This document shows positions 41,864 through 57,129 of a stretch of DNA of 64,000 bases, in pieces. The translations under genes and the position numbers were made by a program. The DNA lies in the IMG/VR virus record IMGVR_UViG_3300024279_000008, positions 1,772 to 65,771 of that record; one strand, written 5' to 3'. This DNA comes from a virus. Lineage: Duplodnaviria; Caudoviricetes. How positions within the stretch are numbered: the stretch's first letter is position 1; every line of letters begins with the position of its first letter. The notes below the pieces were generated by a model. The model was not told the DNA's origin. It worked only from the letters and a program-made list of their open reading frames with translations, and did not search any database.

Positions 41864-42135
41864 TTGGTTATTGCTCCTTTCTAAGTTTGGGAGGGCTGAA
41901 GGTTGCAAGCCTTCGATGGATCACCGATCCACATTCCCGGTGCGCCCTGCCTTACACCGCCTGGAATTGAACCAGGGAGGGTGCCGGTCCCTACTATCCT
42001 CTCGGCTCGGTATGTCTACCTTCGGGACCATAACTGGGGTGCCGCATCTCCCCCGATCCTGGGGCTCATTATGACAAGGGATTGGAGCGGTATGTGGCTC
42101 CCGGGTCTTGTCCAGCACATAAAAGGGAACCTGGG

Positions 42136-42444
42136 TTAGGTCCCCCGAATCGGTTGGCCGTTCTTGGTGACGGCGGGGTTCTCACCCTTACTGTACTTGT
42201 TCGCATCCTCTCCAACCCCTTCCTCCCATCCAGGCTGGTTCCACTCATCATTCGAGGGGGACTCTCGCCGGTAACAGGAGGCCTTCGTGGGGATGGAGAA
42301 TGGGCGTCGTTGGACCTGATCGGCGAAGTGACGGGTCCCAAGCTGGCCAGTTCGTAGGGCATCGTCAGGGTTAGTGGGGCCATCCCCTGGTTGGGTGGGT
42401 CCGACCCGAGGGGCTGCTGAATCTGTATTTGCTCGCATTGCCAT
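42136..42444 (-). CDS. small G/P/D-rich protein
   Basis: ATG one base after the upstream stop. Confidence 0.55.
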   Translation of the reverse strand: MAMRANTDSAAPRVGPTQPGDGPTNPDDALRTGQLGTRHFADQVQRRPFSIPTKASCYRRESPSNDEWNQPGWEEGVGEDANKYSKGENPAVTKNGQPIRGT

Positions 42445-42445
42445 A

Positions 42446-42589
42446 TTACTTCGACGCCTTTCCTTTGGTGGGCTTCCACCCATGGTTGATGGCCGAGGCC
42501 ACCTTCTCGAACGAATCCCGAGCTGCCTCAGACCGGAATTTCCGAACCTCCCCAGTAGCCATCCTGAGTTTGTCCTTCCCTACCTTCAT
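42446..42589 (-). CDS. small basic protein (47 aa)
   Basis: Read manually: MKVGKDKLRMATGEVRKFRSEAARDSFEKVASAINHGWKPTKGKASK. Confidence 0.55.
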   Translation of the reverse strand: MKVGKDKLRMATGEVRKFRSEAARDSFEKVASAINHGWKPTKGKASK

Positions 42590-42592
42590 GGG

Positions 42593-42817
42593 TTAACCTA
42601 CTGGAGGGGCTGGAGGCGTTGGGAAGGTAATCCCCTTAACCGCTGCATCCATCGCAGCAAGACCTGAGTCAATTGTCTCAACTGAGGCCTGCTGGGCTGA
42701 GGATAGGGTTCCGGCTGCAAGCTCCGCTAGGGCAGTTTGGACGTTAGTCACAAACACCCCAAAGTCCGCCTGGAAGGCTGCAAAGTCAGTTGCTAGTTTC
42801 TCAATCGTTGTTGCCAT
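42593..42817 (-). CDS. Ala-rich helical protein
   Basis: AAAGGA RBS before ATG 42817. Confidence 0.6.
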   Translation of the reverse strand: MATTIEKLATDFAAFQADFGVFVTNVQTALAELAAGTLSSAQQASVETIDSGLAAMDAAVKGITFPTPPAPPVG

Positions 42818-42882
42818 ATGATATTGTGTCCTTTGTAGTTTTATCAATAACCTAAGTATCGCGAGGGTTGCACGCATGGTGG

Positions 42883-43062
42883 TTATTCGTTAAAAACCGG
42901 GATAACCTCAAGAATCCCATCAAAGAACTCCTCCCGGGTTGCAAATCGTTTATGAACATCCAAGGTGACTTGGCCCTTTTCGATCATGATCGCATCGAAA
43001 GAGTAGGGCTTGGGGCCTTCGTCGATGAAACTGTAGGCTATGGATTTAATCACACTTGGCAT
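42883..43062 (-). CDS. hypothetical protein (59 aa)
   Basis: Read manually (MPSVIKSIAYSFIDEG...); starts 3 nt after the upstream stop. Confidence 0.5.
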   Translation of the reverse strand: MPSVIKSIAYSFIDEGPKPYSFDAIMIEKGQVTLDVHKRFATREEFFDGILEVIPVFNE

Positions 43063-43065
43063 AAA

Positions 43066-43446
43066 TTACACTTTTTCGGGTGTTGCCCGTTCCTCAAACA
43101 TCTTCGCCCCATCCTGCGCTTCAACCCAATGAGTCCGTTCCAGCTCAATATCTAGAGTCTCTCCCTGGATTTGTGCCCCTTGGCACCGGGGTTGGATCCC
43201 CGAAGCCGGAGGAATGTGATCCGACCGGAGACTAACCCTCGTGACGGGTTCGTTGCAATGTGGGCAATTTTCCTTCTTCACTGCAATAACCGAGGTTTTG
43301 CACCCGGGGCAAGGAGCTGTTGCGACGGTTGCTGGCCACCGATGGCCCTGGAGGCACTGGTTCCAAGTACAAAGCCGGATTTGGGGGGAGGAGGGGAAAA
43401 TTCCCTGAGGAGACGTATCGACGGTATTGGAGGTGACTTGTGACAT
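43066..43446 (-). CDS. Zn-finger protein, first gene of the leftward operon
   Basis: C..GH, CPGC, CPHC. Confidence 0.65.
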   Translation of the reverse strand: MSQVTSNTVDTSPQGIFPSSPQIRLCTWNQCLQGHRWPATVATAPCPGCKTSVIAVKKENCPHCNEPVTRVSLRSDHIPPASGIQPRCQGAQIQGETLDIELERTHWVEAQDGAKMFEERATPEKV

Positions 43447-43622
43447 TTAGGTAATTAATCCGGGAAAAATCCCCTTCCTCTGATCTTAGAATACCACGGG
43501 TATTAACCTTTGTCAAGGAAGGGGTAACCCCTAGGAGAATCAACACGATATCCGCAAGGACCAATTGGACCGATTTGGGGGTTTCGATCCTGGGATAGGG
43601 GAATTATTTTTGTTTTAATTAA

Positions 43623-43631
43623 ATTTTATCA
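43623..43631 (-). promoter_or_regulatory. candidate extended -10 promoter (TGaTAAAAT) for the virion operon
   Basis: Sits in the most AT-rich tract of the divergent intergenic region; no clear -35. Confidence 0.35.
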
Positions 43632-44094
43632 TTTATTCCTAAGTTCTTTAGATCCTTGCATATACAGACTATAGCCCCCATTCCAACGCGCGCGCACCCA
43701 GCTTCGGTTTAGTCCTCCCCCCGGGGCTATCCCCCTGCCCCTCAGCAAGATACGAGCCACGGAGCCTGCCTAGGGACTACTACGAGCCACGTAGTACTGG
43801 GTTGGGCAGGGGTAGGGCGGACGGGCAATGTGGTGGTTTTCAGCCACCCGTGGTGGTGGATATGCACCACCCATCCGGTGAATCCCTTATCGGTAACCGA
43901 GTGGTTGAGAACCACCACCTTACCACCACCAGGGGTAAACCCAACGAACCAAAGGCCGAACAGGCCCCACTCCGCACCGGTGTCAGGGGAATACCTGGCT
44001 GAAATGCACCACCCAAAACACCCTAGGGGGAATCCCAACCCCATGAAAACAAAGGGAAATCGACTTTGGCCACCCACTTGCTCTACAAACCACC

Positions 44095-44415
44095 GTGACA
44101 CGACCGACCCAAACCACCACGGCATACCGAAGAGCGCTCGACGCAACGGTACAGCCTACACCGTGCCCCACGGTAACACGGTACGGCCCCAACGGGCAAC
44201 AACGTGGGGCGGTAGGGACGGCAACGGCCCCCGCAATGGTCAACCCCACGGTTACCCCGGTAGATCGGGTTAAGGCGTGGATCACTGCCGGACGGTTAAC
44301 CCCCAATCAAGGCTATGCGCTGATTATGGTTTGCCTCCGGTGTGACAAGGACGGTGGGTTGGATGGTAATCCGGAGCAATTCGCGGAGTGTCTAGTGGAG
44401 TTAATGCAGGGCTAG
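44095..44415 (+). CDS. hypothetical protein
   Basis: First credible rightward ORF; start uncertain. Confidence 0.4.
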   Translation: MTRPTQTTTAYRRALDATVQPTPCPTVTRYGPNGQQRGAVGTATAPAMVNPTVTPVDRVKAWITAGRLTPNQGYALIMVCLRCDKDGGLDGNPEQFAECLVELMQG

Positions 44416-44436
44416 CCCCTGCTAAGGAGCAAGACA

Positions 44437-44910
44437 ATGGGAAGCATCGTGAGCAGCGTCAGACCCGTAACGGGGACTCCGGCAACGGAACAACCCCAAA
44501 CCACCAACAGCCTGGAAGCACTCGTTGCTCAAGGCAAAGCCCGCGTGACCCTGGTGAAGCCCAAAGTCGCGGTTGGAGCGGCGGCATTCCGCCAGTCCAT
44601 CGCTTCGGGCGAAACCGAAGAAGGGGCGAAACCTACGGTGAATGTGGCCCTTGCGGTGGATGCCGATGGGGCCGCCCATGTGATCCTCCCCGCTGCGATT
44701 CTGTACGGCATGACGCGGGATACCACCAGCAAGCTGGGCAGGGGGATCTACGCTGTGAGCAAGGACTCGGTTACGGTGATGATGGTTCTACCCGAAGAGA
44801 CCATCGACGGAGTGGAGTATCCGGAGCAACAGGTCCCCATGACGCTCACCCTAACGGGGGCGAACTTGCGGTTGAATCCAGGCAAGGTCACCAATCCGGA
44901 CGCGGAGTAA
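44437..44910 (+). CDS. hypothetical protein
   Basis: AAGGAG RBS; protein-like composition. Confidence 0.7.
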   Translation: MGSIVSSVRPVTGTPATEQPQTTNSLEALVAQGKARVTLVKPKVAVGAAAFRQSIASGETEEGAKPTVNVALAVDADGAAHVILPAAILYGMTRDTTSKLGRGIYAVSKDSVTVMMVLPEETIDGVEYPEQQVPMTLTLTGANLRLNPGKVTNPDAE

Positions 44911-45104
44911 CCAAGGAACCAAGGGCGAAATACGGGGGGATAGGTATCCCCGTATCCACGGTTGAGGACCGTGCTGATGATGCCCCCAAACGAGATAACA
45001 CCGGAGATCTACGATATGCTCTGTGAGCTTGTGAGGTTGGAGCAAGAGCAGGTAGATATCGACCGGGAATACCAAGAGCTACTCAGGGAATACGGGGAGG
45101 ATGT

Positions 45105-45680
45105 ATGTGGCAAGAGGTAACCCACGCAACGGAGTCCCACCGTCCCCCACGCGAAGGGGCGGCCACAAACCTGTCGTGGTTCCGGGGACTCAAAGCAGGG
45201 AAACGCCCCACAACGTCCGCCCAGTACCGTGGGCAACTCATGCAACCCAAAGTCTCGCGGGATGGGTTTGTTACTCCGTCCCTGCCCCTAACCAAGGCAT
45301 ACGCACGGCCAGGGTATGAGGATTGCGCCCCACGGCTAGTGAAGGCACGCGAAGTAGGGGCGACGGGCAAAACCGAGGTACTCACCGTTCACCGTACCAA
45401 GCTTGCGGTGGAGTACTTTGGACTGTCCAAGACCGTTACCCTCGTGAAGGATGTGCCTATCCCGGACATGCCGGACTTTGGGGCAGCTACCGACCGCCAG
45501 GAACGGAACCTAGAGGCGTATCGGCAGATGTCTCCGGAGGAACGGGCGGAGTGGCTATATAGCCGCGAGAATGCTCCGTATGAACCCCCTATGCGACGGG
45601 AGGATGCGGCAAGGTTCTATAGGCTCAAGGCAGGGGCAAGGCCGGATGCTGGCCCCAAGGGGTGGGTGCCGGTATGGTAA
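45105..45680 (+). CDS. hypothetical protein
   Basis: GGAGG RBS; 191 aa. Confidence 0.6.
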   Translation: MWQEVTHATESHRPPREGAATNLSWFRGLKAGKRPTTSAQYRGQLMQPKVSRDGFVTPSLPLTKAYARPGYEDCAPRLVKAREVGATGKTEVLTVHRTKLAVEYFGLSKTVTLVKDVPIPDMPDFGAATDRQERNLEAYRQMSPEERAEWLYSRENAPYEPPMRREDAARFYRLKAGARPDAGPKGWVPVW

Positions 45681-45859
45681 CGAGGATGGTGTGCTTTGTA
45701 TGCGGGGTGGGTATCCCCGTGGGGGAAGCTGCGGTGGAGTACAGCCACGAATCCGGTATGTGCCGGAAGTGCATGGATGACTACCGAGCGTGGTCATTGG
45801 CTGAAGGGGTAGATCCGGACACAGGCGAGGCGTTCGTAAAGGGGGTATTGGAAGGGTAG
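45674..45859 (+). CDS. small Zn-finger protein
   Basis: CFVC...CRKC. Confidence 0.55.
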   Translation: MVTRMVCFVCGVGIPVGEAAVEYSHESGMCRKCMDDYRAWSLAEGVDPDTGEAFVKGVLEG

Positions 45860-45939
45860 GGGCAGGTCCCTTCAACCCAACCTACGGCCTCCTAGACCCC
45901 AAGAAACATAGCTGTCGATAATCCCTGGCATCCAGGATC

Positions 45940-46152
45940 ATGGAGGATTCAATGGAACGATCCCTAGCCCTACGGGAGCTTGAGAGGCTCACAACAGGGA
46001 CCGGAGCAATTAAGCGGGCCCAGGAAGGGTACGAGTCCCTAGACGGGTCCCCTCTCAAACCCTGGCAGGTAGCCGAGCACCGAAATCGGATTGCTCGGTT
46101 AGTCCTGGAGGTCACCCGAGAAGCGACTCGTGCCCACGCCTCTGGACGGTAA
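45940..46152 (+). CDS. hypothetical helical protein
   Basis: GGAGG near the start. Confidence 0.55.
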   Translation: MEDSMERSLALRELERLTTGTGAIKRAQEGYESLDGSPLKPWQVAEHRNRIARLVLEVTREATRAHASGR

Positions 46153-46369
46153 GAGCCCAAATCAAGGGCTGTAGGAACCAAGGGATAAAGTCTCTCTGAA
46201 GATGCCCTAGGTGTGTTTCTATAGCCCTTGACCTGCGTTCTTGCAGGACGGGGTAAGGAGCCCCAAAACCACGAGGCATCCTGGCTAAGGGTTGAGCCGT
46301 TAATGCGGTTAATGGTTTGGCTAAGGGTTGGGGTGCCTCGTGATAAACCCACTAAGGAGGATTAAGACG

Positions 46370-46585
46370 ATGAATCCCACAGTCGATTTTGCCGATGCCC
46401 CCATTGGAGGAATAAGCTTGGATTTCACCACCCCACGCAAAACCAAGACTTACACCCGGTGGTTTAACTTCTATCGGGATGGATCAGTGAGCGGAGGGTA
46501 CAACACCGAGGGCGATGCTCAACACGGAGTACTAGTTCGGTCGCGAGCAGCGTGCTACCCCATTACCTTCACGGTGGAGGAGTAG
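46370..46585 (+). CDS. small paralog family member 1
   Basis: AAGGAGG RBS; TRWFNFYRDG...PITFTVEE. Confidence 0.7.
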   Translation: MNPTVDFADAPIGGISLDFTTPRKTKTYTRWFNFYRDGSVSGGYNTEGDAQHGVLVRSRAACYPITFTVEE

Positions 46586-46590
46586 CTTCG

Positions 46591-46815
46591 ATGCCCTGGA
46601 AATTCCTCAACCACCGCTGTTCATGCTGTGGCCAACCCGGGGACTATCACACCTGGGATTGGGTGTGGTTTTGTTCCAGATGTGTCCGGGGATTGAGCCT
46701 CGGGAGGGTGGCACTCTATGGCAGGAAACGCGAAGAATTGCAGGGTCTACCCGCATGGATGCTCCCACGCCCAGCAAGACGAGATCCACGGGAAGGGGCA
46801 GAGGGTTTGGGTTAA
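46591..46815 (+). CDS. small Cys-rich protein
   Basis: CSCC...CSRC; GGAGG RBS. Confidence 0.5.
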   Translation: MPWKFLNHRCSCCGQPGDYHTWDWVWFCSRCVRGLSLGRVALYGRKREELQGLPAWMLPRPARRDPREGAEGLG

Positions 46816-46911
46816 GGCCCCTGGCCAGGGAGGGAAGAACCCTCGTAGGTGGCGGTGCACGGTTTGTGATGCAACGGTGGAGTTGCCGGAGTAGGGAGGG
46901 AGGGAAACGGG

Positions 46912-47214
46912 ATGATAAACTACCACACGAAAGGTCAACGGCTCAAGGGTAAGGCCCTTCAGGCCCAAACACGGGAGATCCATGAGAGGATCACCAAGAC
47001 CGGGGAGGCCCTCCCGAGTGGGGGACGGAACCTGGAGATTCATCGGCTCCTAGTTTACTCTGGCCTCCCCCTCCAGAATGCTCCTGAGGAGCATCGGCTC
47101 GTGGCGAGGAATGGGATGAAGGTCCGAGGGGTGGAGGATCTTCAGGCGCTGGCGCTCATTGCAGGAATGGGGATGGCGGAGTTTACCCAGGAATACGCAC
47201 GTAGGGTGGTGTAG
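46912..47214 (+). CDS. hypothetical protein
   Basis: GGAGG RBS; basic helical protein. Confidence 0.6.
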   Translation: MINYHTKGQRLKGKALQAQTREIHERITKTGEALPSGGRNLEIHRLLVYSGLPLQNAPEEHRLVARNGMKVRGVEDLQALALIAGMGMAEFTQEYARRVV

Positions 47215-47384
47215 TCTGACATCTGGGGGTGGTGCTCATAGCACTACCCTCTAGTGAGGTGACTATGGCCAGACGAGATAACACTGAGCAACGCTTGACG
47301 CAGTTATGGCTCGATCCCATAACCAAAAAGATCGCAGCTAAGAAAGGTGCGAAGGGCGCAATTCCGATTAAGGAGTAGGTGACT

Positions 47385-47576
47385 ATGGAACGAACAATCA
47401 TTGACTTGACGAAGAAAAAGAAAACCCGGGAAGTAACAACGTATTTGAATGTGTACTCGGACGGGCAAAGTTATGGGTATTCGTCGGAGGCGGACGCGGC
47501 GGCGGTGGCGAGGCGGATGCATCAGCGGGCAGCAGTGATCAGTATCCCAATCACCATCATCTACGAAGAGGACTAG
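47385..47576 (+). CDS. small paralog family member 2
   Basis: TTYLNVYSDG...PITIIYEED. Confidence 0.75.
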   Translation: MERTIIDLTKKKKTREVTTYLNVYSDGQSYGYSSEADAAAVARRMHQRAAVISIPITIIYEED

Positions 47577-47596
47577 CCATCCTATCAGCGGGCCAG

Positions 47597-47732
47597 GGAG
47601 CAGGGGTGATATGCCTTTGCTTGGTGTATGAGCCTGGGGAGCTGGGAGGAGGTAACCCAGCGCCACCCACGGGGCAGGCAGTACCGTGTAGGTTGTAATC
47701 ACGGAAGGGTTCAAGCCCCTCCTGCTCCACCA
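47597..47732 (+). ncRNA. 136-nt tRNA-like RNA (acceptor stem + T arm + CCA, non-tRNA core)
   Basis: GGAGCAG/CTGCTCC 7-bp stem, A73-CCA, GGG-TTCAAGC-CCC T arm; no canonical D or anticodon arms. Confidence 0.7.
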
Positions 47733-47769
47733 AACCGAGCCAGCCACCAACAGAATCTGGTCTGGAGAA

Positions 47770-48245
47770 ATCCAGAATCCCCTTGGTGGCGAGCTCGGGA
47801 GAGTTTGCTGATTGATATCCCAACGGGGATCTTCGGACCTGGGTTCAATTCCCAGCACCTCCACCAAGCCATCGGAGCCAATGTAGCTTCTGGCATAAGG
47901 TTTAAGAAAAGTTCATCGTGACTTGGGATAGCTTCCCAGCGCCTGACCAGGATAAAAGGCGGTTTCGGTGGCTCGGTGGGGGTGTAACGGTTTCGACGGG
48001 GACCCACCGGTAAGGTAGAGTACCAGGGGCTAGCGAAAGCCGTCTCTGCGAAGCAGCAACAGGTAGCCGACTACCTGAGAGGAGCCCACGATGCGTGGGA
48101 GCCTCGACAATAGCGGAAAACCAACAACTGCCAATTCCATTGTCAGTAAAGTAACTCGCATTTGGGAACGGATCGTCGAAGCGATCAGCCCTGCGGGTTA
48201 TAGCCCTGCGTTCGCGTAGGGACGATGGGGGCGAAAAGCCCCCTC
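47770..48245 (+). ncRNA. ssrA: circularly permuted two-piece tmRNA (acceptor piece ends 47866; coding piece starts 47978)
   Basis: 3' TLD GGAC-CTGGG-TTCAATT-CCCAG-CACCTCC-ACCA lies upstream of 5' GGGGGTGTAACGGTTTCGACGGGG; G3:U70; tag ORF 48130-48219. Outer ends approximate. Confidence 0.9.
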
Positions 48246-48298
48246 AAGTTTCGAAGGGTATGGTCGCAGCAAAGATTTTGCTCCCTCCTTCACCGGAT

Positions 48299-48400
48299 GA
48301 TACCCCCTGGCAGAGTGGTTAAATGCAGCAGACCCGTTAGGATCTGTGACCCTACTCTATCTGGGTGGGGTCCAAGGGTTCGAATCCCTTGGGGGTATCG
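48299..48400 (+). tRNA. atypical class II tRNA-like RNA with 10-nt anticodon loop; identity unassignable
   Basis: TGGCAGAGTGGTTAAATGC D arm, AAGGG-TTCGAAT-CCCTT T arm, 10-bp variable arm, 7-9 bp acceptor stem, no encoded CCA. Confidence 0.7.
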
Positions 48401-48426
48401 CAGTTTCGAAAGGAGGGCTCCAATCC

Positions 48427-48609
48427 ATGGAACCTATTTTGGTGGATCTAACGAAGAAGGAAAAAGTCCGGGAAGTGACGAAGTATTTGAATGTGTACCA
48501 ATCGGGGATGGTTTGTGTGCATAATACAGCGCAAAGCGCTGCGGGGGTGAAGCCGACGCGGGACTTGGTGGCGGCGGGTCTCCCAATCACCTTCCGATTC
48601 CCGGAGTAA
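48427..48609 (+). CDS. small paralog family member 3
   Basis: AAGGAGG RBS; TKYLNVYQSG...PITFRFPE. Confidence 0.75.
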   Translation: MEPILVDLTKKEKVREVTKYLNVYQSGMVCVHNTAQSAAGVKPTRDLVAAGLPITFRFPE

Positions 48610-48614
48610 CCCCA

Positions 48615-48896
48615 ATGCTCTACATAACCACAAACAACCAAGGCTTCCATGGTGGGCAAGAATGGCATGTAGGAGAGCCATGGCCCACCATTCGAGGCTC
48701 GGTTGTGACCTTCCAGGCTGATGGGCATGAACTCCAAGTCATGGAGGATGCAATGCGGATGTTTCTCGCATTGCCTCTCCAGATGATAGGGGGACGATAT
48801 CTCCCCAAGGGTAGGGTAGTTGTTGCCCCTGATATTCCTGGATGTCATTGCGGAGCGTTGGATATCGAAAACTGTTGTTGCCAACCAGGATGCTAA
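48615..48896 (+). CDS. hypothetical protein with Cys-rich C-terminus
   Basis: GGAG RBS; CHC..CCC..C. Confidence 0.55.
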   Translation: MLYITTNNQGFHGGQEWHVGEPWPTIRGSVVTFQADGHELQVMEDAMRMFLALPLQMIGGRYLPKGRVVVAPDIPGCHCGALDIENCCCQPGC

Positions 48897-49064
48897 AAAG
48901 GAGTCCAAAACTATGTACAACCACTCCGAGAAACACACCGAAGCAAACTGGGAAGGCGAGGGTGGGCACTGCCCCACCCAAGCATACCAAGATCCGACTG
49001 AGACCTACCCCTCCCACCTGATGTGGTGCAGGGATGAATACCCTGGAGAGGGGGAGGAGTAGTC

Positions 49065-49271
49065 ATGCAGGAAGAGACGGTTATTAAGGTTGGGGGGAAA
49101 TCTCCCAGGTCCTCTACGAAGTATTTGAATGTTTACAGGAGCGGGGTTATGTACATACACGACTCGGCAAAGGAGGCGGCGGCAGTGGCGTCCCAAGCCA
49201 CCCGTGCCGCCAGTGGATACCAGGTACCAGTCCTCATTGCCCACCCAATCACTGTAACCTGGGAGGAATAA
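49065..49271 (+). CDS. small paralog family member 4
   Basis: GGAGG RBS; TKYLNVYRSG...PITVTWEE. Confidence 0.75.
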   Translation: MQEETVIKVGGKSPRSSTKYLNVYRSGVMYIHDSAKEAAAVASQATRAASGYQVPVLIAHPITVTWEE

Positions 49272-49395
49272 TCATGATCCTCCTGGAAATCATCGCAATT
49301 GGATTTGCCCAGCATTACTTGGGCTGGGGAGAGTGGCTTTGGTGGGTGTGGGTGGTTGGGGTGGCTTGCCGACTGCTCGATTGGATAACTAACTA

Positions 49396-49623
49396 ATGCC
49401 TGAGATCTCGGAGATCACCGAACTGACTGGGTGGGTCGTGTCCCACCCTGAGGGATGGAGGGATTGGACCCCCACCGAGGCTCGAAAGAGGGTTATCGGG
49501 AAGGCCTCGGAGGTATTCCCTCTCCACACCCCCCGAGAGTACGAGCAATTGGTGGTTCAAGTCCTGGACCGGGTAGGGCAGACTCTGGCCCACTACGAAG
49601 GTAATGAAAGGTGGTTGGAATGA
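49396..49623 (+). CDS. hypothetical protein
   Basis: Protein-like ORF coupled to the next gene. Confidence 0.55.
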   Translation: MPEISEITELTGWVVSHPEGWRDWTPTEARKRVIGKASEVFPLHTPREYEQLVVQVLDRVGQTLAHYEGNERWLE

Positions 49624-49919
49624 GAAAGTTTGTTGATCCTCAGGTTGATCTCTATACCCCTGAAGGGGTATATCTGGTATCGGTGGTTCGTAGCGCCGAC
49701 GGGAAATACCGGTATGTCCAAATGTATATCGATCCTCTTGGACGTATCCAACCAGGTACCATATCGATGCTTACACCGGATTACCATAACAACAACCATA
49801 TGAACCTGAAGGTCTGTCCACATTGCAAGGGACGGTCCTCCACATGTGAGGATTGCTGTGGGTGTGGATGGGGTCCTAACCGGGGAGTGGGAGGGGGAAA
49901 TGAACGAGCAAGCAGTTAA
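49620..49919 (+). CDS. hypothetical protein with CxxC-x-G Zn motif
   Basis: CPHCKG...CEDCCGCG. Confidence 0.5.
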   Translation: MRKFVDPQVDLYTPEGVYLVSVVRSADGKYRYVQMYIDPLGRIQPGTISMLTPDYHNNNHMNLKVCPHCKGRSSTCEDCCGCGWGPNRGVGGGNERASS

Positions 49920-50076
49920 GATAGCCCAAACCTCCCACCCGGGGATTAACTGGTATGATACCTTCCAGCACCCAACCACCGGAGTTGTGATTGTCTATGG
50001 GGTGCCACCGGATAGTGGAAAATTGATTTACCTCATCCTGGTAGGTGGGGAGGAGAAGGCGTTTTGGGAGGGGTGA
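49900..50076 (+). CDS. hypothetical protein
   Basis: GGAGG RBS before ATG 49900. Confidence 0.5.
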   Translation: MNEQAVKIAQTSHPGINWYDTFQHPTTGVVIVYGVPPDSGKLIYLILVGGEEKAFWEG

Positions 50077-50142
50077 TGGTACTTTGGTACTATAAAATCC
50101 CCCTAACCTGTTGAAAAAGACCCATTGGAAGATTTTGGCAAG

Positions 50143-50255
50143 TGTCTCACAAAACCGGCAACTCTCGTTGAATCAACGAGTTACAAATTTTCCCGTGAGA
50201 CAGTTGTTGATTCTAAAGGGTGAAAGTGTCTCAAAACTGTCTCACAGGTGTCTCA
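50143..50255. repeat. iteron-like TGTCTCA repeats (4 direct, 1 inverted) plus palindrome
   Basis: Copies at 50143, 50227, 50238, 50249 and inverted at 50196; CTCGTTG-AAT-CAACGAG at 50164-50180. Confidence 0.75.
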
Positions 50256-50399
50256 CACAGGAGAAAAAACCGTGAAATCTCATGAAAAACCCCCATCCGG
50301 ACCCAGGTTCGTCTGGTCCCTGTTCCTTGCATTTCTCGGACGAGAGCTAACCCGCCCATCGACCATGGAAGGGGAAGCGGAGTTTTGGTTGGGGGTCGA

Positions 50400-51086
50400 A
50401 TGGTAACCAAAGATACAACAGCGACCCGAAAAATGATCCGGGAACGCTTAGAAGCTGGGCGGGTCGAATCGGGTCGGCATAACTGCCACCACATCGGTCT
50501 TCACTCGGTGGTAGTTGAGACCCGAGGGGATAGGTCGCTCCTGAGGATATTCTACACTACCCCAAACCACGGGATGAGGTGGTTGTTTCAGCCTGGGGAT
50601 GAGGCCTACCCTGGGTTGCATTTTGTGTTTGGAGCCCACAATCACAACAAGGCACTGGATTTCACCCTGCTTTATGGGAACGTGTATAATGTCGAGGTAG
50701 CCCTGAAGAACTACCCCTCCGGCCATCAATGGCATGGGTGGATATATCCGTTCTACCAATCGGCACTGCTGGAGGGTGGGTTTAAGCTCGGGGACCCCGA
50801 ACCAGTCGGGGGGAGTATGGTTTGGGCAGGAATAAATGGAAAACACCTGGAAACCTCTGATATTCACACCGTTGTTGTACCCTGGGCCACTCCTGGTGGG
50901 GGCTGGGTGGTAGATGAAGGGCCTCCGGAGGATGTACCGAAGGTGATATTGTCTGGAAGGCCGGACCTTAGGTTGGACCCAACTGGGATGTACCAGGAGA
51001 TGACCCCGGAGGAGTTAACCGAGGCTTGTGAAGCAATCCTGGCTGGGATGCGTGGGGAGGGGTGGAATGACACGAATCACACCTAG
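50400..51086 (+). CDS. hypothetical protein, possible cupin-like fold
   Basis: His-rich motifs NCHH.GLHS, AHNHN and DIHTV. Confidence 0.6.
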   Translation: MVTKDTTATRKMIRERLEAGRVESGRHNCHHIGLHSVVVETRGDRSLLRIFYTTPNHGMRWLFQPGDEAYPGLHFVFGAHNHNKALDFTLLYGNVYNVEVALKNYPSGHQWHGWIYPFYQSALLEGGFKLGDPEPVGGSMVWAGINGKHLETSDIHTVVVPWATPGGGWVVDEGPPEDVPKVILSGRPDLRLDPTGMYQEMTPEELTEACEAILAGMRGEGWNDTNHT

Positions 51087-51246
51087 GATGGTTTGGGTAG
51101 TAATAGCTATGGGGCTGTTGGCTTGGTTGGATTGGCGGATTATAATTACCGGGGTGATAGCAGGGTATGTAATGTTAACATTGCTTCATAACTCTTGGAC
51201 CCCATGGAAACCCACCCCTGGGGAATGGGAGGATCCACGGTTATGA
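51067..51246 (+). CDS. small membrane protein
   Basis: Two hydrophobic segments. Confidence 0.5.
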   Translation: MTRITPRMVWVVIAMGLLAWLDWRIIITGVIAGYVMLTLLHNSWTPWKPTPGEWEDPRL

Positions 51247-51494
51247 ACCGCCAAACCCAAGGGTCCACTCGGTGGAAGAACAGTCGTAGGCGACGAGCCC
51301 TCAGGGAGAGGCTCCTTCGCAGGGATGGGGCGAATTGCTGGATCTGCAATCTCCCAATGGATACCGACCCATCCCATCGGGATTGGTGGGAGGCGGACAC
51401 AATCGAGCATGTCCAGAGAGTAGCGGATGGGGGGACATGCTCGGTGGAGAACCTCCGGTTGAGTCACCGGAGATGTAATCAATTGAGGGGGTAG
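51243..51494 (+). CDS. HNH endonuclease
   Basis: CWIC...TIEHV..VADGG...NLRLSHRRCN. Confidence 0.85.
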   Translation: MNRQTQGSTRWKNSRRRRALRERLLRRDGANCWICNLPMDTDPSHRDWWEADTIEHVQRVADGGTCSVENLRLSHRRCNQLRG

Positions 51495-51755
51495 AGGGAC
51501 ATGGGGGACAAAGTGGATATTCGGGTTTTGGTCCAAGACGGGCTATGGCGGGAAGGGGACGCAGTGTTGTTCGACCCAACCCTTCCTGGGGATGATGGGG
51601 TGTGTGATGAGGGATAAAATCCTTGTGATCCTAGCGTTCTTTGGGGTTCTCGGGTTGGCAATCTGGGTTGCCCCTGCGATGTTTGGGTGGATCGCAGGTG
51701 CGTTATGTTCTGAGCTTGCACATATGGCTCGGAAGAGCACCGAAGGAGAAGGGGA

Positions 51756-52046
51756 ATGAAAGAGACCATACCCGATAAGTTTGGAAGGCAGGTTTGTGTT
51801 GGAAACCCTGGGAGATTCCCAGCAGAGCACCCCAAGGCAGTGGTGGTTTATGATCGGCCTTGGGATTTTAACTGCCCTCCCGGGCAGATCTGCCTTGGGG
51901 AGTATCGGTTGCGTTGTCCGGTTTGCGGGGCAGGGTATGTTTGTGATACCGAGGAACTCAAGAGGCATTTCAACGGGGTGAATATGGCGGCTAAGGCCCA
52001 AGAGGTGGAGAAGTATCTCCAGGGGTTGACAAAGGAGTTGAAATGA
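51756..52046 (+). CDS. hypothetical Zn-binding protein
   Basis: RCPVCG; purine-rich RBS. Confidence 0.55.
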   Translation: MKETIPDKFGRQVCVGNPGRFPAEHPKAVVVYDRPWDFNCPPGQICLGEYRLRCPVCGAGYVCDTEELKRHFNGVNMAAKAQEVEKYLQGLTKELK

Positions 52047-52702
52047 AATACGGATTTGAACGAGAGTATTGGATGGTTGGACCCGATGGACCGGTGATTC
52101 TACCTAAGGATCTGGCATCGGTTCTTACCTACGATGAATGTGGGTATCTCCTAGAGGCCCGAGGTGATCCACATTCCAACCCGATCAAAGCGGCGTGCTT
52201 CTTACTTGCTGAGGAAACGGAGCTATTCCTGAAGGCTCGAAAGAAGGGGATTATCCCTTCAACCAACCCTTCCACATACAAGCTAACTCCTGCTTTCCGA
52301 AAGGATGCTTGGAAGTTATACGGGAAAAATCCATATAATTCCCTCCAAGGAAACATCTACGGGAAGGAGTACAAACCCTCTAATCCGTGGTTCGGGGCAG
52401 GACTTCATGTGCATTTCTCCAACTCCACCGACCAAACCATATCGGTGGAAGGTCAACCTTGTAAGGAATGTGGGCATCGGCACAAGGAAACAAGGAACTA
52501 TTCATACCCTGGAACCTTGGACTTGGCAAAGATTGTCCAGATGCTGGATACAAGATTCAAACAAGAGATCACCGAAGCTAAACGCCTCCCGGGACTCTAC
52601 GAACTAAAGTCCTACGGGTTTGAGTACCGATCCCTGCCTGCATCGGTTGAACCTTTGGCTGTAGCAGAGTGGCTGAGAGAAAACCAGGAGAAGTTTGTAT
52701 GA
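52043..52702 (+). CDS. short COOH-NH2 ligase (glutamine synthetase/GCS fold) family protein
   Basis: YGFEREY, LEARG, GLHVHFS, GFEYRSLP. Confidence 0.65.
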   Translation: MKYGFEREYWMVGPDGPVILPKDLASVLTYDECGYLLEARGDPHSNPIKAACFLLAEETELFLKARKKGIIPSTNPSTYKLTPAFRKDAWKLYGKNPYNSLQGNIYGKEYKPSNPWFGAGLHVHFSNSTDQTISVEGQPCKECGHRHKETRNYSYPGTLDLAKIVQMLDTRFKQEITEAKRLPGLYELKSYGFEYRSLPASVEPLAVAEWLRENQEKFV

Positions 52703-52893
52703 CCAAACACTGGGAAGACATGACCCCCAGGGAGTTCCTCCTGGAGGTCCAACGGGCCAACCCATCCCATCTTGGGATTCGGTTGGTCCCAAACCCTTGG
52801 GATGAACTACGAGAGTTGTTAGGGTTGGATTTCAAAGCCACACCTCAGGAGATTATTGAGGTTGTAGGGGAGCTACCCGATGGTGGATACTAA
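52699..52893 (+). CDS. hypothetical protein
   Basis: ATGA coupling. Confidence 0.5.
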   Translation: MTKHWEDMTPREFLLEVQRANPSHLGIRLVPNPWDELRELLGLDFKATPQEIIEVVGELPDGGY

Positions 52894-53019
52894 ACGCCTT
52901 GATGTTCTTGCGACCCCTAACCTGTCCTGTCCGTCCTGCCAAACCGGGAAGGTCCATCCGCCTGGGGAGTACCGGCACTTTCACCCCCTTGGAGGGCATG
53001 GGCGGACCAGGGAGATTGA

Positions 53020-53304
53020 TTGGACACACCCAGATTTGAAAAAGGAGAGATAACGATGATTGATTGGGACGATATTTGGGAAGGATCTATAATCCTTCTC
53101 GTGACATGCACGATAAGCCTCGGGTTGTATGCGGTGGCTCAACCCCATAACGTGGATTACTACTATCTGAGTCAGGCCTCTGAAGGGCGGGTTTGCACCT
53201 ATGCCCATTGGACTTGGCATTTAGACGAGAAGGCGGGGTGTTTTAACACCCCTCAAGAAGCCACCGACTTTGTAGCGAAAGCAAATCAGGCGATTAAGCA
53301 CTAG
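53020..53304 (+). CDS. membrane-anchored hypothetical protein
   Basis: Hydrophobic segment followed by a disulfide-like C..C domain; likely start at 53056. Confidence 0.55.
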   Translation: MDTPRFEKGEITMIDWDDIWEGSIILLVTCTISLGLYAVAQPHNVDYYYLSQASEGRVCTYAHWTWHLDEKAGCFNTPQEATDFVAKANQAIKH

Positions 53305-53309
53305 GGACT

Positions 53310-53350
53310 GCTCGATACTCCCTTCGGGGAGTGACGAGTTTCCAAGGAGG
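53310..53350 (+). promoter_or_regulatory. conserved leader hairpin, copy 1
   Basis: GCTCGATAC-stem(UUCG)-GTGACGAGTTT followed by AAGGAGG. Confidence 0.6.
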
Positions 53351-53355
53351 TAGGG

Positions 53356-53493
53356 ATGGGATGGATAGTCTACGGAGGGCTGGTGGGGCTACTGGTTTGG
53401 TTTTGGACCGGCACCCCAGGGGCGTGGGAGACGCTCAAGGAGAGTATTCAAAGAGAGTGGGATTTGTTTAAACAAGAAGGGAGGATTAAATGA
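53356..53493 (+). CDS. small membrane protein (45 aa)
   Basis: Read manually: MGWIVYGGLVGLLVWFWTG...; AAGGAGG RBS. Confidence 0.55.
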   Translation: MGWIVYGGLVGLLVWFWTGTPGAWETLKESIQREWDLFKQEGRIK

Positions 53494-53903
53494 CCTACCA
53501 TGTAGCAGTTTATGGTTCCCTTCTCTCCGGCCTACATAACCACGACCGATGGATGGAAGGGGCAGAGCTGGTTGGGACAGGGATTGCTCCTGGGAAGATG
53601 TTCTCCCTTGGGCAGTTCCCTGGAGCGGTCTACCCGGACGATCCCTACTCTGAAGGAGCCCCTTGGATGAAAGTCGAGGTGTATGAGGTCCCGGAGAGAA
53701 CCTTCCAGGGGTTGGATCGGTTGGAGGGGCATCCACAGTTCTACAGGAGGCAGCAGGTCCTCGTGAATATGGACGACACCGATGGGGATGTAGAGTGTTG
53801 GGTGTACTATCTTCCCTCGGAGGATGGGTTGGTACAGAGGATGGGGCAGGAAGTCCCTGACGGGGATTGGAGGAAGTTCCTCCAGGGCAGGGGGCCGGAA
53901 TGA
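53490..53903 (+). CDS. gamma-glutamylcyclotransferase (GGCT/AIG2-like)
   Basis: VAVYGSL..G.HNH, VEVYEV, LDRLEGHP.FYRR. Confidence 0.9.
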   Translation: MTYHVAVYGSLLSGLHNHDRWMEGAELVGTGIAPGKMFSLGQFPGAVYPDDPYSEGAPWMKVEVYEVPERTFQGLDRLEGHPQFYRRQQVLVNMDDTDGDVECWVYYLPSEDGLVQRMGQEVPDGDWRKFLQGRGPE

Positions 53904-54118
53904 CCCGAAGGTTGCTGCTGAGGATGGCTCCGTTTTTCCTCGTGCCCCAAAAACCCGCTGACCTCCAAGCGGAGTTTAACACGCTGGCCAACGACTTCAT
54001 CGCGGACTGGAATACCCTGATGGGGATGGAAGCCCGAGGGAAGTGGGACCGGAAGCTCGCGAGGATGGTGGAGAAGGATTTTGAACGACTCACCGCCCAT
54101 GTTGGGTGGGTGAGGTAG
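53900..54118 (+). CDS. small secreted-type protein
   Basis: MTRRLLL N-terminus; ATGA coupling. Confidence 0.5.
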   Translation: MTRRLLLRMAPFFLVPQKPADLQAEFNTLANDFIADWNTLMGMEARGKWDRKLARMVEKDFERLTAHVGWVR

Positions 54119-54160
54119 GCTCGATACCCTCCAGGGGTGGAGGGTGACGAGTTTAAGGAG
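54119..54160 (+). promoter_or_regulatory. conserved leader hairpin, copy 2
   Basis: GCTCGATAC-stem-GTGACGAGTTT followed by AAGGAG. Confidence 0.6.
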
Positions 54161-54167
54161 CAAACCA

Positions 54168-54677
54168 ATGAAAATCATTGAAGGCATGAAGGAAATTAAA
54201 CGGTTGAATGTCAAACTAGCAGATCTCCAAGCCAAGGTCGGATTGTACTGTGCCGACCATGACTTTGAGCAACCCACCTACCCGGACCAGCAAGGGCAGA
54301 TCAAGGAATGGATTCAGTCCTCGGAGGATACTACCAAACGGATTCTGGCCCTCCGGATCGCAATCCAAACAACCAATCTCCAAACCCCGGTGACGATTGA
54401 GATTGCCGGACGTCAGATCACTAAGTCCATCGCAGAGTGGGTCCACCGTCGAAGAGATCTTGCGAAGATGAACCAGGCTCTCTGGCAGGCTCTCACGAAT
54501 CGAGGGTTGAAGGACGGGGTCCAAAAGACCTCCACTGGGGAGTTAAAGGATGTGAAGGTCCGGTTGTACTTCGACCCCCGAATGCGAGATCAAATGACTG
54601 CGATGTATCGGGACGAGCCCTCCATCATTGATGGGACCTTGGAGGTTGTAAATGCAGTCACCGATCTTGTGATCTAA
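54168..54677 (+). CDS. coiled-coil protein (DIP1984-like N-terminal pattern)
   Basis: MKIIEGMKEIKRL..KLADLQ..., LRIAIQTTNL, SIAEWVHRRRDL. Confidence 0.7.
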   Translation: MKIIEGMKEIKRLNVKLADLQAKVGLYCADHDFEQPTYPDQQGQIKEWIQSSEDTTKRILALRIAIQTTNLQTPVTIEIAGRQITKSIAEWVHRRRDLAKMNQALWQALTNRGLKDGVQKTSTGELKDVKVRLYFDPRMRDQMTAMYRDEPSIIDGTLEVVNAVTDLVI

Positions 54678-54680
54678 CAT

Positions 54681-54972
54681 CTTCGTTGCCGACATAGAGA
54701 GATAAAAACTGGTAAAACCCGACGCTCCCCTAGCGATATAGTGTGGCCCGCTCTGGAATATGAGCAACCAACTGATAATTGGATAAGCTTTGAACCTTAA
54801 GGTTTAAGGATCAAGACTCCAAGGATGCACAGGTTAAAATTTCGTAAGGATGGACGACCCAAGTTTGAAGGATCTAGCAGGGTTAGGTTCCCTGGAATAT
54901 CCTCCAACAGGTTAATGTTTTCGTGTTTATTCCCAGGACCCTTGGAGGCTTCCTCTATGGGCGGCGACGAGT
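54681..54972 (+). ncRNA. candidate approx. 290-nt ncRNA with AAGG/AGG motif array
   Basis: No credible ORF; basal stems TCGTTGCC/GGCGACGA and CATAGAG/CTCTATG close the element. Confidence 0.65.
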
Positions 54973-54989
54973 CAAAGGCAGGAACCTAA

Positions 54990-55262
54990 ATGACCCTCGA
55001 AGAAATCGAACAATCCCTCAAGGCCTCAGCGATGGGACCGGATGGGGAGTTTTATGAGTATCTCCATACACGGTTTGGACCAGGATACATAGAGTTTCCC
55101 ACCCTGCTGCTGATCGATACCTGGGGGGAGGTCTACCGGACCATCCGGTTAATCCAGATGGGGATCGAGGACCCAAAGGATCATCCCTCGGCGGCCTTTT
55201 TGTTGATGCTTTTTGAAGAGATGTATTATCATGGGTATACCCCAAAGGAGAAAAACCGATGA
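54990..55262 (+). CDS. hypothetical protein
   Basis: AGGA RBS; coupled to the next gene. Confidence 0.55.
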   Translation: MTLEEIEQSLKASAMGPDGEFYEYLHTRFGPGYIEFPTLLLIDTWGEVYRTIRLIQMGIEDPKDHPSAAFLLMLFEEMYYHGYTPKEKNR

Positions 55263-55576
55263 AAACCCTAACCCACAACGGTACAACCTACCGGATTGTG
55301 TTCTTTTACCCCCACAAGCACTCAAAGAAGCGTGCAGTGGTGGGATGTCGAGTAACCACCCGGACCTGCTCCCCAGACTCTGGGGAGTTGGTGGCGGGTC
55401 CAGACTACGTAGGGACCGCATCCTGTAACCGGGACTCGGGGGATGAGTTCCAAAAGGAGCTAGGACGGGTCCTGGCCCTGGAACGTGCGGTGGCAGATCT
55501 CCCGCATGATTTGCGCCCCAAAATCCGGGCACTCTATCACCATCGGACCCTCGGGACAGGAGGCGGGAATGTCTAA
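55259..55576 (+). CDS. conserved-type phage protein
   Basis: GTASC...DEF.KELGR.LALERA motif. Confidence 0.65.
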   Translation: MKTLTHNGTTYRIVFFYPHKHSKKRAVVGCRVTTRTCSPDSGELVAGPDYVGTASCNRDSGDEFQKELGRVLALERAVADLPHDLRPKIRALYHHRTLGTGGGNV

Positions 55577-55838
55577 AAAACAACTCCATCTAGAGCAGTT
55601 GATGGCTCAGAGGGATTTTGTCCTCTCGTTGAATGCATTGTCCCCGATCCTCCAGAAGGCCTTAGAGACAGACCTCAACTCCGCGATTGCCTGGGCTGAG
55701 ACCTACTGGCCGGAGACGGAGGAACGGGTTCCTGCACAGGAAAATATCAGCCGAACAACTAACCCGCCTCTTTGGTTTCCTCCGGACGTGGATGAAATCG
55801 TTTGGGAGATGACCGGGGCGATGGCTTGGGGAGGATAA
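55569..55838 (+). CDS. hypothetical protein
   Basis: GGAGG RBS before ATG 55569. Confidence 0.55.
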   Translation: MSKKQLHLEQLMAQRDFVLSLNALSPILQKALETDLNSAIAWAETYWPETEERVPAQENISRTTNPPLWFPPDVDEIVWEMTGAMAWGG

Positions 55839-55842
55839 ACGG

Positions 55843-57129
55843 ATGAACGAGAAGATTTGGATTAGCACAGATAAGGTGGTGGATAAGTATGCCTATAGCA
55901 TCCCCAAGGATACCCCAGTGGTTTTCAAAGGGGACCTACCGGTTGGGGTGCTGGATCGGGGGATTAAACTCTACTCCCCCCCAAGGGATGGGATGGCTTC
56001 TTTCCGGGAAGCAACCCCCGAGGAACTCCAGACTATCCAGGCAGCTCTGGATGCTAAGGCTTTTACCGACCGGGTAAATATTATGGATACCTCCCAATAC
56101 ACAATTGGGTCCGACCCGGAGTTATTCGCGGTCAACAAGGACGGGGTGGTGATTCCTGCATGGAAGTTTCTCGGGTCCAAAACCAGTAGCAGTATTTACT
56201 GGGATGGGTTCCAAGGAGAGTTTACCACCACCGCTCATGGATGCATCGCGTATTGGGTGGATAATTTCCACTACCAACTCAAGCGGTTCAATAGCTACCT
56301 CCACGCATACGACCCTCTCGCCCGGCTCGTGGGGGATTGTGTCCTCCCGATCCCCCCGGAGATGATGGCTGAGACCACCCCAGAGCAGCATCAGCTTGGG
56401 TGTATGCCCTCAATGAATGCGTATGGGGCGGCTGGGGAGGGTGTGGAGCATGGGAAGGCATTGCCAATCCGGTTTGCAGGGTGTCACATTCACATTGGGA
56501 CCCAAGCCTTATCCCCTGAGGAGTTTGTCCGAGCAGTCAAATTCGCTGATGCCCTCGCAGGGGTAATTTCCGTGAGTGTCCTGCAAGGGCTTGAAGACCC
56601 GATGCGAAGGAGGTTCTACGGGTTGGCGGGGGAATATCGGCTCCCTTCGCATGGGTTGGAATACCGGGTCCTATCGAGTGCTATCACTTGGCACCCGGCG
56701 TTGGTACATTTCTTCTCGAACCTTGTAAGGATTGCAGTAGGGGCTGCCAGGGCTGGGGCTGAGGGCCTCTGGAAAGTCTCCGAGGAAGAGGTTCAACACA
56801 CGGTTAATACCTTGGATATCCACCAGGCCCAGGAGATCATCCTCCGGAACCGAGGGGTGTTGGAGGATATTCTTGGGAAGTTGTATGGGACCAACCAACC
56901 GACCCTGGGAGGTAGTGAGTACATCCCCTGGGGAGTCCCTTCGCCTCAGCGGATCGTGGATGAATTCATCCTTCAAGGGGTGAAGAAGTATATCCCCCTG
57001 GACATCGAGCAAAACTGGCTTCTCAAAGGCGGGTGGGTGGCCCACTCCGAAGGCCCTCAAGTGATGATGTGGCGGGCACTCAAGACCTGGTTAGATGGGT
57101 GGGAGTATGTCCCGCCTGGGAGTAGATAA
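55843..57129 (+). CDS. phiEco32-like COOH-NH2 ligase
   Basis: IGSDPELF, DGFQGEF, LGCMPS, GCHIHIG, YGLAGEYR, GLEYRVLS. Confidence 0.88.
   Translation: MNEKIWISTDKVVDKYAYSIPKDTPVVFKGDLPVGVLDRGIKLYSPPRDGMASFREATPEELQTIQAALDAKAFTDRVNIMDTSQYTIGSDPELFAVNKDGVVIPAWKFLGSKTSSSIYWDGFQGEFTTTAHGCIAYWVDNFHYQLKRFNSYLHAYDPLARLVGDCVLPIPPEMMAETTPEQHQLGCMPSMNAYGAAGEGVEHGKALPIRFAGCHIHIGTQALSPEEFVRAVKFADALAGVISVSVLQGLEDPMRRRFYGLAGEYRLPSHGLEYRVLSSAITWHPALVHFFSNLVRIAVGAARAGAEGLWKVSEEEVQHTVNTLDIHQAQEIILRNRGVLEDILGKLYGTNQPTLGGSEYIPWGVPSPQRIVDEFILQGVKKYIPLDIEQNWLLKGGWVAHSEGPQVMMWRALKTWLDGWEYVPPGSR

Follow-up and report, generated by a model that had tools for sequence, protein, structure and literature searches.

Does the tmRNA-like locus of this phage encode a working ribosome-rescue RNA, and is the long reading frame inside it used as a tag? 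The window analysed here, a stretch of 64,000 nucleotides, covers bases 1772-65771 of a 65,771-bp IMG/VR record that has direct terminal repeats and is rated 100% complete. Among its genes are those of a family A DNA polymerase, a primase and a portal protein, and the source record is a real phage of 65.8 kb. Searches against cultured phages gave no nucleotide match by blastn and only remote protein matches by tblastn, for the portal protein and the polymerase, at about 21-30% identity. Neither an SmpB gene nor a tyrosine integrase is present in the complete phage genome, which suggests that the tmRNA gene is whole and not an attachment-site fragment, and that its RNA must depend on host factors.

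A circularly permuted tmRNA gene in the phage genome

ARAGORN reported one permuted tmRNA gene in the window, at 47774-48310, with the same 29-aa tag that the initial annotation had read; all features of the locus given below are on the + strand. The positions in that annotation were all correct against the sequence. It had also proposed a check with permuted covariance models, and the general permuted-tmRNA model of Rfam (RF04321), which aligned here over the tRNA-like domain only, reached 59.8 bits where its gathering score is 47 (E 4.5e-9).

The 3' half of the tRNA-like domain, which belongs to the acceptor piece, was placed at 47830..47866 by the RF04321 alignment, ARAGORN and the sequence. 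It comprises the P2a 3' strand (47830-35) and, as read from the sequence, the T arm CTGGG-TTCAATT-CCCAG (47839-47855), the acceptor 3' strand CACCTCC (47856-47862), the discriminator A73 (47863) and an encoded CCA (47864-66). The 5' half, with which the coding piece starts, was placed at 47978..48002 by the RF04321 alignment and as the 5' tRNA domain of ARAGORN. It includes the acceptor 5' strand GGGGGTG (47978-47984), which pairs with 47856-62, the D-loop analogue UAACGGUUUCGAC and the P2a 5' strand CGGGGA. As had been annotated, the 3' half lies upstream of the 5' half with a 111-nt gap between the CCA end at 47866 and G1 at 47978, and the G3:U70 alanine determinant is present, with G47980 opposite U47860. 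In the RF04321 alignment the T arm and UAACGGUUUCGAC reached the maximal posterior probability; a conserved T loop and a D-loop analogue GGNUUCGAC without a D stem are marks of tmRNA. The GGUUUCGAC motif, the T loop, A73 and the encoded CCA could be read directly in the sequence; all conserved tRNA-domain features were aligned by RF04321, and the tRNA-like domain was without defect. Judged by sequence, the locus is a genuine circularly permuted two-piece tmRNA gene in a phage.

The message part fits no model of the known two-piece lineages

Of the permuted models, the general RF04321 detected the gene, but the alphaproteobacterial, betaproteobacterial and cyanobacterial models all stayed below threshold. 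The alpha model RF01849 gave 34.6 bits (threshold 50), the beta model RF01850 gave 41.6 bits (threshold 84) and the cyanobacterial model RF01851 gave 38.8 bits (threshold 70), and these three models aligned the tRNA-like domain only. The RF04321 alignment covered positions 27-111 of 213, with positions 1-26 and 112-135 dropped, and the coding piece alone had no Rfam match. In a calibration with 15 other viral permuted tmRNAs from an IMG/VR sample, RF04321 aligned at full length (1-213) with 84-151 bits, and 13 of the 15 passed the alpha or the beta model. A cyanobacterial origin, suggested by the ANSIV tag start, was not supported, as the cyanobacterial model scored below the beta model.

The locus shares with the alpha, beta and cyanobacterial lineages the permuted order, the tRNA-like domain with G3:U70, the P2a helix between the pieces, a tag starting with AN and an A-rich context before a GCN resume codon. 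It differs from them in the intervening segment, which is about 25 nt in their models and 111 nt here. As far as the models can tell, the message part is outside every known two-piece lineage model, and the gene is an orphan copy.

Searches for relatives gave the same picture. In IMG/VR, no relative was found with the exact 25-mer of the 5' tRNA domain, with a pattern joining the tRNA domain to the resume context, or with a pattern for the flanking tRNA-like element. A pattern for the permuted tRNA domain matched seven IMG/VR loci, none a relative and all of the ordinary AND..LAA type except L199, which has a 30-aa tag. The pattern for the tag ends gave one chance match only, and that for the tag helix gave five matches, all in ordinary protein-coding frames with no tmRNA nearby. 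Metagenome contigs gave 0 matches for each of two patterns. In GTDB genome contigs, a 24-mer of the 5' tRNA domain occurred only in unrelated bacteria, and the nine matches that ARAGORN could call were all one-piece tmRNAs, from Oscillospiraceae, Clostridia, Syntrophaceae/Smithellaceae and Magnetococcales; this stretch is therefore convergent and says nothing on the host. That these searches gave no homologue counts against a working tmRNA.

The intervening segment and pairing between the pieces

The intervening segment (47867..47977), presumed to be removed in processing, folded with an MFE of -37.8 kcal/mol (z -1.9). The 13-bp stem that had been proposed to close it (47867-79/47961-73) was present in the MFE fold, but it was only modestly better than chance, with z -1.9 and as good a fold in 9 of 200 shuffles. 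A T-arm-like hairpin (TTGGG-ATAGCTT-CCCAG) lies inside this segment at 47920-47944; it shares 76% identity with 47836-60, which covers the real T arm and the beginning of the acceptor strand. The hairpin may be left over from the duplication behind the permuted gene, and a likeness of 76% is borderline by chance on a rough estimate.

The two pieces had also been thought to pair a second time, between 48020-29 and 47779-88. This pairing exists, but as 9 bp with one bulge rather than as 10 bp, and a second helix between the pieces did not hold up, as its strength was at chance level (z -0.06, 220 of 500 shuffled partners). The pairing competes with a perfect 8-bp local hairpin, 47743-50/47783-90. 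The 5' leader (47733..47829), which runs from the upstream tRNA-like element to the tRNA-like half of the acceptor piece, folded on itself with z -2.99 (1 of 200 shuffles) into hairpins at 47737-47796 and 47797-47821, and it stayed self-paired in a constrained two-piece fold. The P2b/P2c pairing of the consensus, in which the coding piece meets the 5' part of the acceptor piece, was thus not found here, the leader-coding duplex being the chance-level one above.

The coding piece appears to close on itself

The message domain (48003-48300) folded with -129.6 kcal/mol, z -6.6 against shuffles. It is bounded by a long, irregular closing helix, whose 5' strand (48003..48054) pairs with 48248-48299 and whose 3' strand (48248..48300) abuts the downstream tRNA-like element and is the proposed 3' end of the coding piece. 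This helix has about 37 bp with a duplex energy of -42.5 kcal/mol (z -3.8, 3 of 500 shuffles), and was seen in both the free and the constrained MFE folds. From these folds we infer that the coding piece closes on itself through its two ends. In the RF04321 consensus, P2b and P2c are formed with the 5' part of the acceptor piece, whereas here this region appears to find its partner strand in the 3' tail of the coding piece. Such an arrangement would place the permutation break between P2a and P2b, as modelled from one sequence.

Two stable hairpins occupy the usual place of PK1 (48060..48105) in the MFE fold, CAGGUAG-CCGA-CUACCUG and GAGG-AG-CCCACG-AUG-CGUGGG-AG-CCUC. No compact H-type pseudoknot (PK1) was found upstream of the resume codon by stem enumeration. 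The resume codon is 152 nt from G1, compared with roughly 84 nt (estimated) in L049, a typical viral tmRNA. Two further MFE hairpins lie at and after the stop codon (48204..48243). One of them, CCCUGCG-UUCG-CGUAGGG, has 7 bp and a UUCG loop and carries the stop codon in its 3' strand, like tmRNA helix 5; the other, past the stop, is GGGGGC-GAAAA-GCCCCC.

The predicted tag frame and its peptide

The tag frame predicted by ARAGORN (48130..48219) consists of a GCC resume codon, 29 codons in all, and a TAG stop (48217). It is preceded by the A-rich leader GACAAUAGCGGAAAACCAACAACU at 48106..48129, which was recognised through the ARAGORN resume consensus; the leader GAAAACCAACAACU followed by GCC AAU resembles the RF04321 consensus, in which CAAAaccaUAAaU is followed by GCa AAC. 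GGA at 48115, after AAUAGC, we take to be a second in-frame resume candidate by its resemblance to the E. coli context. In a shuffle control, the tRNA-like domain was kept intact while the body was dinucleotide-shuffled, and 300 trials were passed through ARAGORN. A tag was still given in 110 of the 300 controls (37%) and a tag of at least 25 aa in 20, showing that tag calls for orphan tmRNAs need independent support. An AN start appeared in 1/300 and an A-hydrophobic-A end in 0/300 of these controls, and neither of the other two frames of the coding piece yielded a tag-like peptide. On the sequence evidence, the 29-codon frame is the best tag candidate.

The description of the tag as amphipathic was borne out. 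Its Eisenberg moment over residues 2-19 was 0.73-0.90, a level that 0-2 of 5000 permutations of these residues attained, and the helical moment was about twice that of any other long viral tag sampled. For the 42-aa ORF in which the tag lies, AlphaFold2 gave a helix with a block-mean pLDDT of 82-90 over the core. Such helical periodicity argues for selection on the tag peptide and hence for a probable translation of the frame. The tag frame also contains a direct repeat of 9 nt, in frame, at 48187 and 48202; it encodes SPAGY and then SPAFA and suggests growth of the tag by duplication.

The predicted tag ends in AFA, a non-polar C-terminus. ClpX recognises a C-terminal LAA together with its free carboxylate, and by this rule the AFA end should make a poorer ClpX signal. 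The initial annotation had supposed that the tag may redirect or block degradation by ClpXP, and it is plausible, by analogy, that it shifts the protease or the location of truncated proteins. A precedent for a protease-switching tag sequence is found in the ssrA tags of Mollicutes, such as mf-ssrA of Mesoplasma florum, which ends in NYAFA and is read by Lon and not by ClpXP (PMC9382460). Like the phage tag, the Mollicutes tags are long and have an aromatic-x-AFA end rather than LAA. They differ in belonging to one-piece tmRNAs of wall-less bacteria without ClpXP, and the likeness stops at the last three residues, an amphipathic helix being unreported for Mollicutes.

A ribosome-binding motif and an in-frame ATG

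The tag frame is open from 48079 and contains an in-frame ATG at 48091, with AGGAG (48080-84) 6 nt before it and no stop between. This combination of AGGAG and in-frame ATG arose in 12 of 5000 shuffles. It had been overlooked in the initial annotation, which also missed that the coding piece appears to close on itself and that the three clade models fail. The resulting 42-codon ORF is called as a gene in a public protein collection, where it is a singleton, and its look-alikes in the ESM Atlas, all below 0.9, carried no information. The three bases of ATG 48091 make up the triloop of a GC-rich hairpin of 6 bp, whose internal loop and lower stem contain AGGAG, with GAGG paired to CCUC. As both are masked by this hairpin, ordinary initiation should be poor and would need the hairpin to open. 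The AGGAG-ATG pair suggests that the tag frame could be read by ordinary initiation instead.

tRNA-like elements on both sides

Upstream of the leader lies a tRNA-like element of 136 nt (47597..47732), with a 7-bp acceptor stem, a T arm and A-CCA (fold z -2.2). Over its last 30 nt, which cover the T loop, the acceptor 3' strand, ACCA and the trailer, it matches the 3' end of the acceptor piece at 77% identity, but it has A3:U70 instead of G3:U70. The likeness suggests common descent of this element and the acceptor piece or shared processing signals, and the element is a candidate for the 5' punctuation of the tmRNA precursor. Downstream, at 48301..48399, lies a tRNA-like element of class II whose anticodon loop has 10 nt (cloverleaf MFE z -4.67). 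ARAGORN calls it when introns are allowed and not otherwise, as tRNA-Leu(tag) carrying a 3-nt insert, and its first base, 48301, is one base past the end of the tmRNA closing helix. As a candidate site for RNase P, 48301-48399 would fix where the coding piece ends on its 3' side.

The gene sits in a region that differs between related phages

Forty-one related phage loci were retrieved through the portal protein. DNA similarity to the related phages ends near 41.8 kb, which puts the tmRNA gene in a lineage-specific accessory block. No permuted tmRNA was found in 21 records of portal-related phages (42-82% identity), and ARAGORN gave no tmRNA in the parts fetched. The 42000-56000 block had no DNA similarity to any of the 41 loci and contains many structured RNAs and, on the + strand, many short ORFs. 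Between 44 and 48 kb the GC content is elevated, with a peak of 0.59 at 44-46 kb. By these sequence properties, the block at 42-56 kb looks like a lineage-specific accessory region. An alternative genetic code for the ORF-poor 41-56 kb was considered and rejected, as reading each stop as sense lengthened the longest frames about equally.

Proposed function and alternative explanations

At a probability of roughly 0.58, our preferred reading is that the locus encodes a working phage two-piece tmRNA which appends a helical tag ending in AFA. The + strand would be transcribed inside a small cluster of tRNA-like RNAs, and tRNA-processing enzymes acting on the flanking elements would set the outer ends of the tmRNA pieces. 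RNase P would cut at G47978 and 3' trimming would proceed to the encoded CCA at 47866, releasing the 111-nt segment; the 3' end of the coding piece would probably be set by RNase P at the adjoining tRNA-like element. The pieces would be joined by the acceptor stem and P2a, as the covariance-model alignment indicates. The RNA would be charged with alanine through G3:U70 and A73 and then enter stalled ribosomes, using the SmpB, alanyl-tRNA synthetase and EF-Tu of the host. Translation would resume at GCC 48130, and the 29-residue tag predicted by ARAGORN would be appended, with an 18-residue amphipathic helix followed by the non-polar AFA end. The benefit, which is speculative, may be that ribosomes are kept available in infection while truncated proteins get a non-standard mark. 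This mark would fit the ClpX LAA rule poorly and may be read by Lon, FtsH or a membrane-associated route.

The alternative that deserves the most weight, although we hold it to be rather doubtful, is that the tRNA-like domain is active while the frame is not a trans-translation tag, the RNA being either a tag-less rescue RNA or SmpB decoy, or the host of a 42-codon small gene. In the latter version, the frame would start at ATG 48091 from a hairpin-masked ribosome-binding site used under some condition and would give a free amphipathic peptide. The AGGAG motif before the in-frame ATG, the public gene call of the 42-aa ORF, the failure of stem enumeration to find PK1 and the long distance from G1 to the resume codon all favour such a reading, and tag-less permuted tmRNAs have precedents, with 72 permuted tmRNAs in the tmRNA database having no coding sequence (PMC11915505). 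A decoy has one as well: an RNA like that of mycobacteriophage DS6A, consisting of the tRNA domain only, inhibits tmRNA (PMC11915505, PMC4131195). The present locus resembles DS6A in being a phage RNA with a tmRNA tRNA-like domain that may interfere with host trans-translation; however, DS6A has no message domain, whereas here there is a 300-nt structured domain with a credible tag frame (PMC4131195, PMC11915505). A start codon in a GC-rich hairpin triloop, with AGGAG mostly in the same hairpin, speaks against the small gene, and three typical tag features that are rare by chance, an AN start, an AFA end and an upstream context like the consensus, speak against a tag-less RNA. The tag reading and the small-ORF reading are mutually compatible.

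A more far-reaching reading, which we regard as unlikely, would make the gene a fourth, phage-borne two-piece lineage with a permutation of its own at the P2a/P2b break, an acceptor piece of about 37 nt and a self-closing coding piece. It would also include outer ends cut by tRNA-processing enzymes at the flanking elements and an amphipathic-helix tag that leads to a fate other than ClpXP degradation, and it adds that the same frame might be translated from the masked ribosome-binding site. More improbable still is a decaying passenger from the host or another phage, whose message has drifted and whose long frame is an accident of in-frame duplication. The location in the 42-56 kb accessory region without DNA similarity to related phages, the 21 related records without a permuted tmRNA, the raised GC content at 44-48 kb, the 9-nt repeat in the tag and the alignment of RF04321 at positions 27-111 only would all fit such a history. 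However, the tRNA-like domain is without defect, the message domain folds much better than expected by chance (z -6.6), drift would not be expected to produce the helical periodicity of the peptide (0/5000 permutations), and the patterns tried found no donor-like tmRNA in bacterial genomes or metagenomes. Also considered was an attachment site or integration module carrying part of a tmRNA to rebuild the host gene, as temperate elements often do, since tmRNA genes are frequent integration targets (PMC4383910, PMC11915505). This reading was rejected given that the phage has neither SmpB nor an integrase; the direct terminal repeats of the record, and the presence of both tRNA-like halves and a message domain rather than a 3' fragment, point the same way and leave it a very slim chance.

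If the RNA works as predicted, the phage would supply a ribosome-rescue RNA with a tag unlike any host tag. The locus would then be a natural experiment on tmRNA tags, setting a folded amphipathic helix against a short unstructured degron, and a possible source of an orthogonal degradation or targeting tag, as the Mesoplasma tag and Lon are already used. The self-closing coding piece and the three failed lineage models bear on how often tmRNA circular permutation has occurred.

Comparison with known phage tmRNAs and long viral tags

Databases already contain many two-piece tmRNAs of phages and many long viral tags, and neither is surprising by itself. The initial annotation had named bacterial lineages for two-piece tmRNAs; in cultured phages, the class is already documented by 53 cases (PMC9004378). 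Of 18,146 phage genomes screened by Buchholz et al., 402 had tmRNA genes, with 133 distinct tmRNAs, of which 53 were two-piece by ARAGORN, 50 of these 53 coming from marine or aquatic phages (PMC9004378). According to Table S1 of that study, the entries of which include hosts such as Caulobacter, Pelagibacter, Synechococcus and Roseobacter, examples are the OM43 phage Melnitz, the Pelagibacter phages HTVC008M and Mosig, the Caulobacter phiCbK-like phages and the Synechococcus myophages S-CRM01 and S-SSM7 (PMC9004378, Table S1). A tmRNA database of 2025 lists 79 phage tmRNAs and 11,946 permuted sequences (PMC11915505).

The locus shares with the known phage two-piece tmRNAs a complete permuted ssrA in a phage without SmpB, the order of 3' tRNA-like half, spacer, 5' half and then message domain, and the status of an accessory gene present in some members of a phage group only. 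Among the entries consulted, known carriers are mostly about 88-320 kb, with Pseudomonas phage Phi-S1 at 40 kb, compared with 65.8 kb here (PMC9004378). The tag here is longer than those of the known phage two-piece tmRNAs, helical and AFA-ended.

The tag had also been called unusually long, a view that a survey of IMG/VR did not support. One scan with a pattern matching the 3' tRNA-like half and a later one with the permuted pattern yielded 126 loci, and ARAGORN, run on these, gave 52 permuted and 37 standard tmRNA calls. Credible tags of 23-30 aa were found in 5 of 38 unique permuted viral tags (about 13%), and 15 of 31 unique standard viral tags were 20-31 aa, two of them doubtful and without a tag-like ending. 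The 29-aa tag is thus in the upper tail among viral tmRNAs and is not an outlier. Tags of 24-31 aa were predicted at nine IMG/VR loci (L031, L077, L086, L113, L199, L053, L062, L085 and L110). One 30-aa permuted tag was identical in L086 and L113, and a 24-aa tag starting with GEEKSSFTWEDAM and ending in GADYAVAA occurred in three variants across contigs. These sequences suggest that long tags are genuine in phage tmRNAs and have been described too little. On another IMG/VR contig (L029:5575-5791), a manA RNA motif was found (63.4 bits) at a distance of about 1.4 kb from a permuted tmRNA, which recalls the riboswitch-like RNA reported beside the Melnitz tmRNA.
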